Of a stretch of DNA of 64,000 nt, positions 9,099-57,002 are shown piece after piece. Under the pieces are notes generated by a model that was given only the letters and a program-made list of their open reading frames with translations, ran no database searches and was not told where the DNA came from. The position numbers and the translations under genes were made by a program. Origin of the DNA: an uncultured delta proteobacterium (lineage in GTDB: Bacteria > Desulfobacterota > Syntrophobacteria > BM002); contig CAVQGX010000031.1 in NCBI GenBank assembly GCA_963712115.1, forward strand, positions 256,001 through 320,000. The letters are read 5' to 3'. Positions within the stretch are counted from its first letter, which is position 1; every line of letters starts with the position of its first letter.

Positions 9099-10034
9099 CT
9101 ACTTGACCTGGGCCAACTTGCCCTTGGCGATTTTTGCCTGATTGCTATTCGGATATTCCTTGACGACCTTCTTCAAAAGAATCTTCCCTGCAGTGCTATC
9201 CCCAAGTTCCAAAAAGGCCATGCCCTGCTTGAGTATAGCACTGCTCACCTTATCACTCTTGGGGTATTCCTTAATTGTCTTTTCATAGGAAGCTATGGCT
9301 TCCCCATAACTCTTCTCCGCATAATAGCACTCGCCCAGCCAGAATTGTGCGTTGTCGGCCAGGTCGGACTTTGGATATCCTTCGAGATAGCTCTTGAATT
9401 CATTTCTTGCTGCGTCGTACTGGCCACTGCGAAAAAGCTGAAGGGCATTGTCATAATGTTCTTCAGCACTTGAGGCTGGCTGCTTCTTAGCAGTTTGTCC
9501 GGTGTCAGAAGAGGACTTAGCCTTGGCAGCTTGTTTTTCTGTTTGGCTGCTCGGCTTGGAGCTAACTGCCAGTTCCTGCAGTCCAAGGTAGCCGGCCATC
9601 GTATTCAGAGCTCGCTGGAGATCCTCCACATTTTTGCGAATCTCCAGCATCGACTCCATTTGATTTTGCTGAACCTCACTAATGCGTTCCCCGTTTCGAG
9701 TGTACATTGCAGTGGCTTCTTCCATCTGACCGGTTAACCGCCCCAGTTCTAATTCTATCCGATCCAACTGCGCCCCTACCTCTGCTTGATTCTTGCGAAG
9801 TGGCTGCCGGTCAGCATCAAGGGCTGCCAATTTCTCATCTAATGTTTTTTCCATTTCAGCCATCTGGGCTTTGCTCTTGTCCAGGTCACGGCGGGCAGTC
9901 CAGATTTGCCTCTGGAGCAAGGATACATCTTTCTGGGTGGCGCACCCTCCAAGGAAAAAACACACCAGCAGCAATTTTAGCAATCCAAGACCCAAGAACC
10001 TCTTCCCGATGTCAGTGGATGCAATCCTATTCAT
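9099..10034 (-). CDS. cpoB: Tol-Pal system protein CpoB/YbgF
   Basis: 311 aa; lipobox, coiled coil, C-terminal TPR YPKSDLADNAQFWLGECYY...SAILKQG; directly downstream of pal. Confidence 0.92.
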   Translation of the reverse strand: MNRIASTDIGKRFLGLGLLKLLLVCFFLGGCATQKDVSLLQRQIWTARRDLDKSKAQMAEMEKTLDEKLAALDADRQPLRKNQAEVGAQLDRIELELGRLTGQMEEATAMYTRNGERISEVQQNQMESMLEIRKNVEDLQRALNTMAGYLGLQELAVSSKPSSQTEKQAAKAKSSSDTGQTAKKQPASSAEEHYDNALQLFRSGQYDAARNEFKSYLEGYPKSDLADNAQFWLGECYYAEKSYGEAIASYEKTIKEYPKSDKVSSAILKQGMAFLELGDSTAGKILLKKVVKEYPNSNQAKIAKGKLAQVK

Positions 10035-14113: not shown

Positions 14114-14188
14114 AAGTCACCACACTTCGCGCAGGTGCGCTTCGTTGTTACTCATAGTCATTTGGCCACTAAAAGTGGCCTAATGACC
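14114..14188. repeat. GTCATT/AATGAC mini-hairpin array, locus 1 (short)
   Basis: AAGTCACCACACTTCGCGCAGGTGCGCTTCGTTGTTACT (near-copy of 15176-15214), then GTCATT-TGGCCACTAAAAGTGGCCT-AATGAC. Confidence 0.65.
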
Positions 14189-15175: not shown

Positions 15176-15314
15176 AAGTCATTACACTTCGCGCTTGCGC
15201 GCTTCGTTGTCACTTGGGCTGGCGCCCGTCATTTATGGTCACTCATTGTTTAAAGACAATAAATGACAGCGAAGCATAGTGACGGCGAAGCCGAATGACG
15301 CGAAGCAAATGACC
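15176..15314. repeat. GTCATT/AATGAC mini-hairpin array, locus 2
   Basis: Left arm GTCA(T/C)T at 15178, 15209, 15228, 15238; right arm A(A/G)TGAC at 15262, 15278, 15294, 15308 separated by GCGAAGC-type hairpins; preceded by CACTAGG heptamers at 15124-15170. Confidence 0.8.
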
Positions 15315-37795: not shown

Positions 37796-38651
37796 ATGGC
37801 AACTTTTGAGAGTATTCTGGTTTACGTTGACGGCTCGGAAGCGAGTTTAAATGCCTTGCGAGAATCGCTGCACCTTGCCCGAGCGGAAAAAAGTAAAATA
37901 ATGGCGGTATCTGTTGTCCCTCCTTATCAGGGGGATCTCAGGTTCGCCGGTCTAAGAGATATCAAGAGCTTACTGAAGGAACCTTGTGAAACCGCTCTTG
38001 ACAGAGGCAATGAAATTAGCAGAGGAAGAGTCCACTTTACTCACCACAGCGTGTATGGAGGGCGAACCTCATGAGGAGATTGTAGATCTCGCAGAGGCCG
38101 AAGGCTGTGATCTTATTGTCATGGGGATAGGCTCAGAGTCTATGGAAAAGGTCTTCGTTATGGGCAGCACCACTGCCAGAGTAATAGGCTACAGCCAGGT
38201 CGACGTCCTTGTTGTCCCGGAGAAGGCGACTATTGGCTGGCAAAATCTCCTCCTCGCTACTGACGGTTCCAAACACAGTGAAAAAGCGGCTGCACGGGCA
38301 GCGGCTATTGCTAAGTCCAACGGCGCAGAACTCAACATCGTCTCTGCCACAGATTTTGTCTGCGAGCTTTACGCTCAAGCACCGGAAGTGGGTGAAGCTT
38401 TAATCAAAAAGGCCAGGAAAACCTTGGATGCCAGCAAGAAGCGAGCTGATCTCGAAGGGTTGAATACAGAGTGTTTTGTGCGAGAAGGAGAGGCATACAA
38501 GGCAATAATTGACCTGGCGAAAGAAAAGAAAACTGAGATGATTGTCATTGGCTCCCATGGAAAGACGGGTTTAAAAAGGCTTCTTATGGGAAGTGTTGTG
38601 GAAAAAGTCATCGGTCATTCCCACTGTCCTGTACTCGTGGTCAAAGGGTGA
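37796..38651 (+). pseudogene. Tandem universal stress protein split by a +1 frameshift near 37997-38000
   Basis: ORF 37796 (MATFESILVYVDGS...PCETAL) continues in another frame as TEAMKLAEE...ATDGS...GSHGKTGLKRLLMGSV; removing one base gives one ~284-aa tandem USP. Confidence 0.8.
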
Positions 38652-38759
38652 ATGCAGTAGTTCTAACTTAAGACCAGCGATGAGGACGGCTGGAAAAATC
38701 CCGGGCAGATCAAACATAGATGTGATAATCGAGGAGCTGGCCGGGAGATCTTGCCTAAC

Positions 38760-39362
38760 ATGGCCAGAGAAACAGGAGCCGCGGCTGTGATCAAGAGTTT
38801 GATAGACCGGCTTTTCAAGAAAAAACCCGGACACAAGCGAGTAAATATCAGCGGCAGAAAGCGGCTGGGTTTAGCCAGACGCTTGGAAAGATATGGTGAG
38901 GCTGCAGCCCTGGCACAGGCAGGGTTGCAGGATGTAGCCCAAGAGATAATCCGTCGCGAGATTCAGGAACGTCCAAGAATCCTGGTGGTGGGAAGTGAGG
39001 ACGGGTTTTCCCGGCCCCTGGTTGATTACGCCATAGGGCTAGCCAAGCGCATGAAATATGAGATTGTCGCCCTGAACTGGGCGGACATCGCTACTGAGGC
39101 TCCCGAAAAGCTCAATCCCTATCGGGAGGAATTACTCGAGGAGTTCAAGGCAAGAGCGGCTAAGGCAGTCGAGCTACTAGCCTCGCGCGCCGCTGAAGAA
39201 GGTGTACCCCTTCGGCATGTGGTCAAGTCAGGTGGGCTGAGCACTAGCGTTCGTGAGCTGGAAAAGGAGGTTAGCCGCTTAAGCTTTGTCCTAACTGAAT
39301 CGGAGCCAACCCGAGAGTTGGGATTGGAGACATCGATTCCGGTCTTCTGTATCAACAAGTAA
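38760..39362 (+). CDS. USP-like protein with AxxLAQAG motif (start may be GTG 38787)
   Basis: EAAALAQAG..VAQEI followed by RILVVG..FS..LVDYAI USP-like fold; ends IPVFCI. Confidence 0.72.
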   Translation: MARETGAAAVIKSLIDRLFKKKPGHKRVNISGRKRLGLARRLERYGEAAALAQAGLQDVAQEIIRREIQERPRILVVGSEDGFSRPLVDYAIGLAKRMKYEIVALNWADIATEAPEKLNPYREELLEEFKARAAKAVELLASRAAEEGVPLRHVVKSGGLSTSVRELEKEVSRLSFVLTESEPTRELGLETSIPVFCINK

Positions 39363-44557: not shown

Positions 44558-44737
44558 AGCACCCCTGCGCTGGTTTCTTCTGAACGATTTGTTTTCATAA
44601 TGATAGTTTACAAGGGCCTAAATAGCAAACGTCTAGATTGACCCCTTTCGGGTCAAAAGATGAGGTAGATCTTTAGGAAGAGAAAAGATTCAATCTCTTT
44701 ATTAGAACAATTCGTTTTTGCAGTGCTCAGTGCCTTT

Positions 44738-44973
44738 GGCCACTAGAGGTGGCCGTCATAACGCTGCGCTGTCATTATGCCTTCGGCGTCATTTATGTCA
44801 TTAGGTCAAGTATCGCTTCGCTGTCTCCATGCTCGTCCCCATGCGGGTAACCTAATGACGGCCGCGAGGCCAAATGACGGGCTTCAGCCCAAATGACGCC
44901 GAAGGCAAATGACCATTAATGACGGGCGCCAGCCCTATTGACGGCGCAGCCGAATGACGCGGAGCAAATGACC
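44738..44973. repeat. GTCATT/AATGAC mini-hairpin array, locus 3 (longest)
   Basis: GTCAT(T/A) at 44755, 44771, 44788, 44797; A(A/T)TGAC at 44854, 44873, 44892, 44908, 44918, 44937, 44953, 44967, mostly separated by different short palindromes. Confidence 0.85.
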
Positions 44974-44990
44974 TGTTAGTGCCTAGTGTA

Positions 44991-45380
44991 TTACTCTTCG
45001 TGCCCCAGGAGCTTCATGCGGAAACTGGCTGCCTCCTGTCTTTTAAGATCCAGTTCTTGCCACTCTTCCCGCAATGTCGCCATTAGCTGCCTCTGTTCCA
45101 GCCATAGCGCTTGGTCATTGCTGACTCTGTCGCTTTCTTGCCCTTCTCTGGGGGCCTGGAAGCCATTTTTGCCTTCAATTTCCTTTAGTCGTTTCTTTAC
45201 CGCGGCCACCTCTGCCTTCACTTCTCTCATCCGCGCCAGTATTGCTTCCTCATCGCGGGTTAAAGGCACGTAGTTCCCCTCGCATTCATCTTTTTTGTCG
45301 AAATATTGGTGACAAGCTGTGCAAGATTCGCCATTCTCAGTCACAGAAATGGTGCCATTTTTCTTGACGTCACTACTCAT
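44991..45380 (-). CDS. Hypothetical coiled-coil protein with N-terminal CTACH motif
   Basis: 129 aa; RBS GGAGG; CTACH..C then helical hairpin; no signal peptide. Confidence 0.75.
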   Translation of the reverse strand: MSSDVKKNGTISVTENGESCTACHQYFDKKDECEGNYVPLTRDEEAILARMREVKAEVAAVKKRLKEIEGKNGFQAPREGQESDRVSNDQALWLEQRQLMATLREEWQELDLKRQEAASFRMKLLGHEE

Positions 45381-45421
45381 TAAAATCCCTCCCTATCTAG
45401 AGCGCCCATGGCGTAAATACC

Positions 45422-45571
45422 AATATCGAATATCGAAATACGAAACAAATCCGAAATTCTAATTTCCAAATGCTCAAAACAACTTCCGGAAAAATTGACG
45501 ATCAGGTTTTGGTCATTTGAGTTTTGAAAATTCGAATTTGTTTAGGATTTAGTGCTTGGGATTTCGGATTT
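45422..45571. repeat. ~150-bp AT-rich imperfect inverted-repeat element, copy 1
   Basis: AATATCGAATATCGAAATACGAAACAAATCCGAA ... TTCGAATTTGTTTAGGATTTAGTGCTTGGGATTTCGGATTT; related copy at 59816-59975. Confidence 0.7.
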
Positions 45572-56632: not shown

Positions 56633-56721
56633 GGTCATTTGCTCCGCGTCATTTGGGCTGACGCCCGTCATTCGGCCTTACGGCCGTCATTATGTTGTTA
56701 CAATGAATGACCATGAATGAC
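56633..56721. repeat. GTCATT/AATGAC mini-hairpin array, locus 4
   Basis: GTCATT at 56634, 56648, 56667, 56686 separated by GCTCCGC, GGGCTGACGCCC, GGCCTTACGGCC; AATGAC at 56706, 56716. Confidence 0.82.
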
Positions 56722-57002
56722 AGCGGAGTGGAACTAGGGACCCGCTTGCGGGCCTGAGCGGAGGGAAGCGAGGGCAAAGAAATGAAAAATGGGAAATTAG
56801 AATTGTGCCTAGTGCTTAGTGCATAGTGCCTAGTGTAGTGCTGCCTGTTGCAATCTGCCTGCTGACCTCTGACCTCCGATCTCTGCCTTCTCACCCTATG
56901 CTCTATGCCCTATGCTCCATGCCTGCTTTTCAGTGCACTCCTTGACGCTCCTCCTCCCACAGGTTAAAAGATAGGCTCCCACAAGCAGAAAGGAATATTT
57001 CA

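Follow-up and report, generated by a model that had tools for sequence, protein, structure and literature searches.

Heptamer tandem repeats, among them the short tandemly repeated repetitive (STRR) sequences, have been known since 1990, and we know of no accepted origin or function for them. Mazel is said to have described STRR heptamers in that year. In Nostoc punctiforme, Elhai et al. reportedly found in 2008 small dispersed repeats (SDR) of ~20–27 nt that are nested in tandem heptamers and in each other and are present or absent at orthologous sites. Intervening sequences (IVS) of 23S rRNA form another class of inverted structures, and their stems are substrates of RNase III. Here, we describe an element of 243 bp at positions 44735–44977 of a 64,000-nt window from an uncultured delta proteobacterium. 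The window corresponds to positions 256001–320000 of contig C31 in genome G000 (4.9 Mb, 70 contigs, 48.9 % G+C, 94 % complete). The element is non-coding and has two arms, with GTCATT units on the left and AATGAC units on the right. It is probably one copy of a non-coding, non-autonomous, gene-less selfish repeat, a palindromic mosaic that belongs to the world of STRR-like heptamer repeats.

The left arm opens with the hairpin GGCCACTAGAGGTGGCC and reads GGCCACTAGAGGTGGCC-GTCATA-ACGCTGCGCT-GTCATT-ATGCCTTCGGC-GTCATT-TATGTCATT-AGGT, GTCATT-type words parting ACGCTGCGCT from GCCTTCGGC; a 43-nt centre follows. This arm, called alpha here, occupies 44738–44802 on the minus strand (GTCATT is read on the plus strand) and is composed, from the outside in, of a GGCCAC-N5-GTGGCC hairpin, ACGCTGCGCT, ATGCCTTCGGC and a TAT spacer. 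In the family list, the window copy stands as C31:300755-300972, its alpha arm having the tokens s t c a and the g hairpin outside. Counted from AGGT to ACCT, the centre spans 51 nt (44803–44853) and holds a degenerate GTCAAG-TATCGCTTCGCT unit and a 27-nt filler. Its edges are GTCATTAGGT ... ACCTAATGAC, and it aligns with the family centre GTCATT-CATAGTTAACT-GTCATT-GTGGCGTTGAAACAACTT-AATGAC of other copies. The right (beta) arm lies at 44854–44973 on the plus strand. After ACCT, it shows eight NNTGAC words with GGCCGCGAGGCC, GGGCTTCAGCCC, GCCGAAGGC, a C-ATT filler, GGGCGCCAGCCC, GGCGCAGCC (behind ATTGAC), GCGGAGC and C. The cassettes are e f c t f b d, with the loops GCGA, TTCA, GAA, GCCA, GCA and GGA. 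An earlier note on this DNA had described the locus as an array of a constant hexamer and mini-hairpins, and the sequence reads as claimed. The borders 44735 and 44977 were set from empty orthologous sites and metagenome contigs. A run of AGTGCTC/AGTGCCT heptamers hosts the element on the left (44716–44734, plus strand), and the AGTGCCT run goes on to its right (44978–44992, plus strand). The whole lies between two minus-strand genes, 14 nt past the stop of a 129-aa open reading frame (ORF) and 178 nt before the start of a sensor kinase. The 51-nt centre between the arms contains no ORF, and the element is not a cassette of the IVS-like kind described below.

The window contains 55 copies of the hexamer AATGAC where 32.7 would be expected, and none of 100 shuffles reaches 55. 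A scan of G000 for three repeated hexamer units, of the type that the earlier note had asked for, gave 157 matches against 2 for the reversed control. Because of this hexamer excess and the triple-hexamer matches, chance is excluded. Arms were then defined as TGAC runs spaced 7–32 nt with at least two AATGAC. This gave 225 arms and 1080 units (697 AATGAC, 151 AGTGAC and 63 ATTGAC), which form 56 two-armed elements and 113 single arms; the arrays are dispersed over 164 loci in 4.9 Mb. The unit length peaks at 8, 10, 16, 19, 24 and 31 nt. Among 855 cassette-bearing units, 123 tandem units measure 8 nt and nine measure 7 nt. Pure AATGACNN tandem arrays, taken here as the basal form, are present at C52:9026-9055 and 9545-9574, and also in genomes G031 and G034. 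Around ten cassette types could be identified genome-wide: AGCGNAGCGT, GGCGNAGCC, GCCGNAGGC, GCGNAGC, GGCC-loop-GGCC, GGGC-loop-GCCC, GGCCAC-N5-GTGGCC, a 25-nt palindrome, and fillers of 2 nt and 4 nt. The proposed modular grammar, a fixed hexamer plus a small library of mini-hairpins, is thus borne out. A perfect stem of at least 3 bp is found in 323 of 613 cassettes (7–26 nt) versus 19.6 % of shuffled ones (maximum 23.5 % in 100 shuffles); a further 143 AGCGNAGCGT cassettes, with a 2-bp GC stem and a GNA loop, stand outside this count. The stem begins right at the hexamer in 261 of the 323. In 239, the loop is of the G..A type on the AATGAC strand, which confirms the loop bias that had been noticed in the window. 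The polarity of the family in G000 is strict: a GTCATT arm is followed by an AATGAC arm within 130 bp 56 times, and the opposite order does not occur.

Near-identical single arms are found in both orientations 2.4–74 kb apart. Large composite elements built from such inverted pairs are conceivable; dispersed copies of one repeat explain the pairs equally well. One-armed arrays of 46 bp (AATGAC-AGCGNAGCGT-A[AG]TGAC-CT-AATGAC-GGCGAAGCC) are present at 44 places, for example at C14:33781-33849 and C20:168092-168167. They adjoin a conserved TACCNNTTACAAYA word and then a GGTCAGA-type heptamer run with the same GTCA polarity.

The two arms of an element are not copies of each other. Outward from the centre, the alpha arm follows the order a-s-t-c-a-g or a shortened form of it, and the beta arm follows e-f-h, e-b-d or c-t-t-e-f-b. 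Of the 56 two-armed elements, 37 clearly combine an alpha with a beta arm; a pair of alpha arms occurs once, and a pair of beta arms never. With all 56 in one orientation, most align to a single master of 130–260 bp with whole units missing or added. There are 29 distinct ordered neighbour pairs, whereas shuffling within arms (1000 times) gives 41.6 on average and never fewer than 37; the entropy of ordered neighbours is 3.93 bits versus 4.74 (minimum 4.59) in the same shuffles. Individual pairs are strongly directional (e>f 12:1, f>h 8:0, b>d 13:0, a>g 20:1, f>b 13:0, a>b 44:4). In the window copy, the right arm (e f c t f b d) is imperfectly colinear and resembles two beta subfamilies joined together.

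The flanking genes of the window element are conserved in the genus, and the locus could be compared between species. The orthologous spacer in G002, G004, G006 and G012 holds only AGTGCCT-type heptamers and no array; the heptamers at the empty sites of G012, G004 and G006 are the same as those of the left flank. In G013, an unrelated repeat occupies the spacer. A related array is present in G007 (80 % identity overall), in which the first three right-arm cassettes are those of the window copy, while the outer parts and the left arm differ. Empty alleles were also seen in contigs of two sediment metagenome runs, with the joins 44734>44977 and 44689>44978 and heptamer filler between; these contigs were matched at 90 % likeness and may be from related species. 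Some metagenome contigs have joints within the array (e.g. 44796>44917); these most likely derive from further family members and not from alleles of the locus. Between species, the whole 243-bp block is thus either present or absent within an intergenic heptamer run. Compared with a miniature inverted-repeat transposable element, the arms are inverted at the hexamer level only, the two ends differ (a g hairpin versus d or h), the flanking heptamer run hides any duplication, and no transposase partner was found in G000.

The window holds further copies. The earlier note had pointed to three more loci, and all three are real and use the same words. A minimal copy, GTCATT-T-GGCCACTAAAAGTGGCC-T-AATGAC, lies at 14157–14187. 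The second two-armed element (15178–15314; C31:271178-271313) has a left beta arm consisting of a long palindrome followed by GGGCTGGCGCCC, and its right arm ends with AATGACGCGAAGCAAATGACC. A third two-armed element at 56633–56721 has a left beta arm (d, f, e), the centre ATGTTGTTACAATG and a short alpha arm on the right. After the last cassette of an arm of this third element there is a nested insert of about 52 nt (AACTAGGGACCCGCTTGCGGGCCTGAGCGG...; approximately 56730–56781, plus strand). This insert (AACTGGGAACCCGCTTGCGGGMCTGAGCGGAGCGCAGCGAGCGCGAAGA) has 14 copies in G000, of which at least nine lie between a cassette and the next NNTGAC; its usual place is between a hairpin cassette and the following AATGAC. 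The terminal unit AATGACGCG(G/A)AGCAAATGACC is shared by three loci, as had been stated: 44953–44973, 15294–15314 and, as the reverse complement, 56633–56653. A separate repeat of ~158 bp, with AT-rich heptamer-like arms around a core, is located at 45414–45571 of the window; it has ~70 BLAST matches in G000 and many in every congener.

According to the earlier note, hairpin cassettes might be added, shuffled or templated at the fixed hexamer by an array-building system. The comparison of orthologous loci that the note had asked for supports this in part: whole units do come and go, and the 52-nt insert nests by the hexamer, but the element itself is gained and lost as a block. A colinear cassette order had been named as the observation that would speak against array building. 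Because the order is close to fixed and most copies align to two colinear arm types, this is largely what we find; an exception is the right arm of the window copy. The variation taken for shuffling is mostly explained by descent from a few colinear masters and by whole units that were lost, gained or exchanged at the hexamer. An active cassette machine could possibly be based on a retro-element with Avd-like four-helix-bundle proteins. The unit-level differences between orthologous arrays and the nesting at the hexamer are consistent with it. The PF05635 proteins considered below are homologous to Avd, a protein of diversity-generating retroelements (DGR), according to PMC10053308, and Guo et al. 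2011 (PMC3240598) state that DGR targets require a GC-rich hairpin with a strand-specific G..A loop. The hairpins of the family differ from these targets: the stems are 2–6 bp versus 7–10 bp, and the loops are GNA or tetraloops that are mostly GYNA (GTAA, GCCA, GCAA) versus GRNA. There is no visible growth polarity, and no reverse transcriptase gene (RVT_1 match) is found in the 94 %-complete G000. Given the near-fixed order, the presence and absence of whole elements, and the lack of an HUH, RAYT, reverse transcriptase or Ssn partner, the array-building idea is unsupported, and we consider an active machine very improbable.

The family extends beyond G000. The triple-hexamer pattern is present in all 17 congeners and in one other genus of the family (reversed control 0–2), whereas three further genera of the same family gave no match. 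G031 and G034, from a different family of the class, carry pure AATGACYY octamer arrays with no hairpins. The G031 genome (99 % complete) has long AATGACTY octamer arrays, which account for 180 pattern matches and are often situated at the ends of contigs (e.g. C1:1-216, C16:2-39). The pattern matches in G038 were rejected as members, being a different 25-nt repeat. Subsequently, one genome per species was scanned across phyla with AATGAC-NGCGNAGCNN-AATGAC, which gave at least 123 loci. Among these are Bacteroidota (Fibrella, Mucilaginibacter, Bacteroidales, Saprospiraceae and others), Calditrichia, Cloacimonadota, Nitrospinota, Balneolaceae and deltaproteobacterial metagenome-assembled genomes (MAGs). 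One Halieaceae record is also among them; it is a single site and may be due to chance. The layout is the same across phyla, and among the matches listed the polarity is 57:0 with GTCATT first. Again among the matches listed, 79 of 172 cassettes outside the search pattern form hairpins, and 51 of these 79 have G..A loops. A literature search on AATGAC/GTCATT hairpin repeats returned nothing relevant among the matches listed.

The location of the arrays and their folding bear on a second explanation. Here, the arrays would act as RNA when transcribed at gene ends, where their AAUGAC units and GNRA/GNA-loop hairpins would be processing sites, stabilizers or platforms for an RNA-binding protein, and they would be kept for that function. 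This explanation is compatible with a selfish origin, and we regard it as possible rather than probable. Gene calls in these statistics were crude (longest ORFs of at least 100 aa). None of the 56 two-armed elements lies inside an ORF call. The neighbouring genes are arranged in tandem in 34 cases, convergently in 16 and divergently in four, against an intergenic-length background of 63 %, 15 % and 22 %. The convergent versus divergent excess (binomial p = 0.0004 against intergenic length) is a bias to the 3′ ends of genes, as an RNA role would predict. In the fold of the window copy, the GGCC and GGGC hairpins branch off a long stem. The folding energy is −63 kcal mol−1 as DNA (shuffles −39.3 ± 3.8, z −6.3) and −117.2 kcal mol−1 as RNA (shuffles −80.0 ± 4.8, z −7.8). 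The folded single strand suggested by the earlier note is therefore supported, and the RNA value favours an RNA role. The conservation of loop bias and polarity across phyla points in the same direction. The GTCATT arm is free of ATG and the AATGAC arm contains ATG and TGA, a distribution that would suit cassettes with a central ORF. On the other hand, Rfam gave no match at the gathering threshold over the whole window, orthologous sites in congeners are without arrays and without a visible substitute, and the orientation relative to flanking genes shows no clear bias (14 vs 7). Assembled contigs of the RNA run X20 include pieces over 44735–44796 and 44850–44914, which may stem from other family copies and do not establish transcription.

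Partner enzymes were looked for in G000. The earlier note had suggested a co-occurring HUH nuclease or reverse transcriptase. There are four Y1/HUH (Y1_Tnp) genes, but these have their own, different ends. Three are of the IS200 type, two of them with their own CCCCGCAGC..GCTGCGGGG hairpin ends. The gene at C56:7625-7981 encodes a classical IS200 TnpA and lies 185 bp from an array at the contig end. An inverted repeat of its own, GGGTTTATCCCCGCCC, borders the RAYT-like gene (C20:238078-238593); this repeat has four copies in the genome and differs from the arrays. An element moved as single-stranded DNA by RAYT or TnpA, either of the REPIN/BIME type (doublets of repetitive extragenic palindromic (REP) sequences and bacterial interspersed mosaic elements) or of the IS200/IS605 type (palindrome-associated transposable elements, PATE), would share with the arrays the inverted doublet, the extragenic location, the unequal hairpin ends and the lack of a visible target duplication. 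The single adjacency among four genes is close to chance given 164 loci in 4.9 Mb (by a rough estimate a few percent per gene). Movement by these enzymes is therefore unlikely.

A further candidate was a single-domain GIY-YIG nuclease of the Ssn type, which acts on single-stranded DNA; the arrays would then be tandem targets that are variants of its NTS and SRM motifs. According to Chenal et al. 2025 (PMC11893778), NTS is CGTCATTCCCGCGMAVGCGGGAATCYRG and the SRM pattern starts with HGTCWY. Two small GIY-YIG genes are present in G000, and in the array-bearing Fibrella and Mucilaginibacter, small GIY-YIG genes are flanked by their own GTCA-hairpin repeats. The 700 bp on either side of each small GIY-YIG gene of G000 are free of arrays. 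Their homologues occur in 13 of 17 and 10 of 17 congeners; G011 and G001 have only UvrC, but these genomes are 62 % and 80 % complete. Across 41 relatives, the GIY-YIG genes do not co-vary with the arrays, and G031, despite its many octamer arrays, has only UvrC. Searches with the protein P0001 gave only UPF0213 proteins and UvrC in the PDB and nothing above the cut-off in NCBIfam. The SRM pattern (HGTCWY-N0-2-YYVSBRH-N0-5-WNVSBRG-N0-2-RNCYNB) has 38 matches in the genome, compared with 19–29 in five mononucleotide shuffles, and none of the 38 overlaps an array. The genuine NTS-like copies form a separate family in G000 (CGTCATTCCCGCGAAAGCGGGAAT), with the word CGTCATTCCCGC occurring 13 times, and relative to the hexamer, the G..A loop of the arrays is on the opposite strand compared with NTS. 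We therefore give the Ssn explanation little credence. The NTS-like repeat of G000 is almost identical to the NTS of Neisseria (CGTCATTCCCGCGAAAGCGGGAATC), for example at C31:112740, C15:649 and C56:3517, and it is often paired with a CGTCATCCCCGCGTAGGCGGGGATC unit.

A search for genes between two arrays revealed a different association. On C52, a 122-aa four-helix-bundle protein lies between (GTCATTNN)4 and (AATGACNN)4. The corresponding Pfam family, PF05635, has 14 matches in G000, which represent 13 genes. On visual inspection, each of the 13 lies between inverted runs of 7–8-nt tandem repeats, and the heptamer differs from copy to copy. The genes are located at C46:138682-138999, C30:121568-121864, C30:122777-123091, C30:124478-124795, C20:78459-78773, C20:192533-192817, C59:7316-7630, C18:8263-8577, C3:31748-32062, C52:9194-9508, C42:157608-157787, C42:159487-159780 and C14:38459-39044. 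At the last of these, a single-domain GIY-YIG gene (84 aa, 38616–38870) sits inside the four-helix-bundle gene, giving two Pfam matches. GTCATT/AATGAC arms surround two of the 13 (C3:31652-32145, with hairpins, and C52:9026-9574), and both of these are IVS-like cassettes. With a strict count (at least seven shared inverted 8-mers in the 200-nt flanks), nine of the 13 PF05635 genes are bracketed versus 76 of 3983 crude genes (Fisher p = 1.4e-13). For the PF05635 loci of relatives, the numbers are 12 of 29 by the strict count and ~21 of 29 by eye; among these 29 are a gene located in 23S rRNA and a locus with a masked flank. A threshold of at least five shared inverted 7-mers is passed by 15 of 27 loci from Fibrella, two Mucilaginibacter species and a Calditrichia MAG; by eye, ~25 of the 27 are bracketed. 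The GTCATT/AATGAC arms are present at three of these 27 copies and at the G031 copy (L217).

The C3 cassette is orthologous in G007, G014 and G005, where the gene is kept at ~77 % identity and the arms differ by whole units and loop bases; judged by BLAST gaps only, it is absent in G002 and G013. Its junctions resemble the inner junction ..ACAACNT-AATGAC that is seen in 22 of 56 gene-less copies. In G024 (contig C79; L155, L227), which belongs to another family, a PF05635 gene and a GIY-YIG gene are found inside the 23S rRNA gene as ORF-bearing intervening sequences. Among the titles and abstract openings of the matches listed, we found no report of heptamer or inverted-repeat bracketing of four-helix-bundle or IVS genes. 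GxxExxY (PDDEXK_3) genes were also inspected; inverted heptamer runs are seen by eye at three of five. At C31:167808-168158, C31:229316-229666 and C46:9416-9766, short inverted runs of the CACGAAG or CCGCAGAGAA type are present at both ends. These associations allow a tentative proposal, in our view rather unlikely as a whole. The AATGAC arms and heptamer arrays may be the cis shell of hairpin-seeking mini-cassettes that cross phyla, with an Avd-like, GIY-YIG or GxxExxY gene as cargo, and they may also make the ORF-bearing IVS of 23S rRNA. Gene-less arrays would be empty shells, the STRR heptamers would be made, extended or maintained by the same system, and the polarity and G..A loops would be read by a conserved factor.

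A gene-less selfish repeat remains our preferred explanation for the locus, which we read as a member without a gene of a wider group of inverted-arm structures made from short tandem repeats. The basic unit is AATGAC with 1–2 filler bases, the filler mostly replaced by a GC-rich mini-hairpin with a G..A loop. Two different arms, with GTCATT units at the 5′ side and AATGAC units at the 3′ side, allow a single strand of DNA or RNA to fold into a long stem with side hairpins. A possible mechanism can be outlined. The number of units may change by slippage or unequal exchange between the repeated hexamers. Gene-less elements and gene-carrying cassettes could be two states of one structure, with the gene lost from or inserted into the centre. 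Arms that are transcribed would make an IVS-like stem, which could be cut by RNase III or could stabilize an RNA end. Spread would involve a single-stranded hairpin intermediate or recombination between arrays, plus a host or trans-acting factor.

Several observations weigh against this explanation. Neither a transposase nor a target-site duplication nor an autonomous partner was found, and the word mobile thus describes solely the presence and absence of the element. The hexamer, the polarity and the loop bias are alike in distant phyla, which is hard to explain by neutral selfish spread alone and points to a conserved factor or function. The X20 contigs cannot separate repeat copies and hence give no demonstration of transcription. 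Most PF05635 genes carry other heptamers, and G029, G020 and G024 have PF05635 without AATGAC arrays; the PF05635 gene is therefore not specific to the AATGAC family. The PF05635 and array counts are weakly correlated (rho 0.53 in 19 genomes), and genome size gives the same rho. This correlation was dropped as evidence because genome size confounds it. Finally, heptamer-rich intergenic DNA makes some bracketing expected, but the gene control argues against this as the full explanation.

Any mechanism for these arrays has to account for three constraints: one hexamer across phyla, a polarity without exception in 113 two-armed copies (for the cross-phylum part, among the matches listed) and a strand-specific G..A loop. 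The Avd-like genes, known residents of 23S IVS, are much more frequently enclosed by inverted heptamer arms than other genes are, and they provide a concrete handle. If the link is causal, it would tie together STRR sequences, rRNA intervening sequences and stand-alone Avd-like paralogues, and it would be testable in culturable Fibrella or Mucilaginibacter. If it is not, the arrays are ordinary selfish repeat DNA that matters mainly through assembly breaks and spurious start codons.

The family can be placed among known systems as follows. REP, BIME and REPIN sequences with their RAYT are, according to Bertels and Rainey 2011 (PMC3116915), extragenic inverted doublets that fold into a long hairpin, mosaics of few motifs with hundreds of copies. 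The inverted extragenic doublet is found here too, in 56 two-armed elements outside ORFs, with the window copy folding as one hairpin, but a cognate RAYT flanked by the same repeat is lacking in G000, the constant part is only 6 nt, and the hairpins vary. The NTS and SRM repeats of Ssn resemble the arrays in that a GC hairpin comes after GTCATT, and in their copy number (hundreds) and cross-phylum spread (Chenal et al. 2025, PMC11893778). The AATGAC arrays do not follow the SRM pattern, neither flank nor co-occur with GIY-YIG genes, and have the loop bias on the other strand. The 23S rRNA IVS with a PF05635 ORF share the inverted arms as a stem around a small ORF, as in G024 and at the two G000 loci. 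The window element differs in lying outside rRNA, in having no ORF, and in arms that are made of repeated hexamer-hairpin units. Clustered regularly interspaced short palindromic repeats (CRISPR) also alternate a constant short word with variable inserts; judged on repeats, cassettes and layout, the arrays are distinct, as had been claimed, with a 6-nt constant part versus repeats of at least 23 nt, about ten recurring hairpin types in near-fixed order, palindromic arrays and 164 loci. The BOX elements of Streptococcus (boxA-boxB-boxC) are modular intergenic mosaics too, in which the number of inner modules varies; their modules are 40–60 nt, lack a constant hexamer and belong to a different phylum. 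The SDR of Nostoc punctiforme may differ from the AATGAC family in taxon, hexamer and palindromic two-arm layout. AATGAC followed by C is a rotation of the complement of STRR2 (TTGGTCA). The STRR heptamers of cyanobacteria, Beggiatoaceae and some Bacteroidetes resemble the family in being intergenic 7–8-nt tandem units with a patchy spread across phyla and no known mechanism (Mrazek 2007 as cited in MacGregor 2015, PMC4679880); the latter paper contains neither AATGAC nor GTCATT. Head-to-tail intergenic units of 7–8 nt are present in the family, whereas its hairpin units of 16, 19 and 24 nt exceed this size, and it is set apart from STRR by units that mostly carry a GC mini-hairpin and by a two-armed structure of fixed polarity and near-fixed order.

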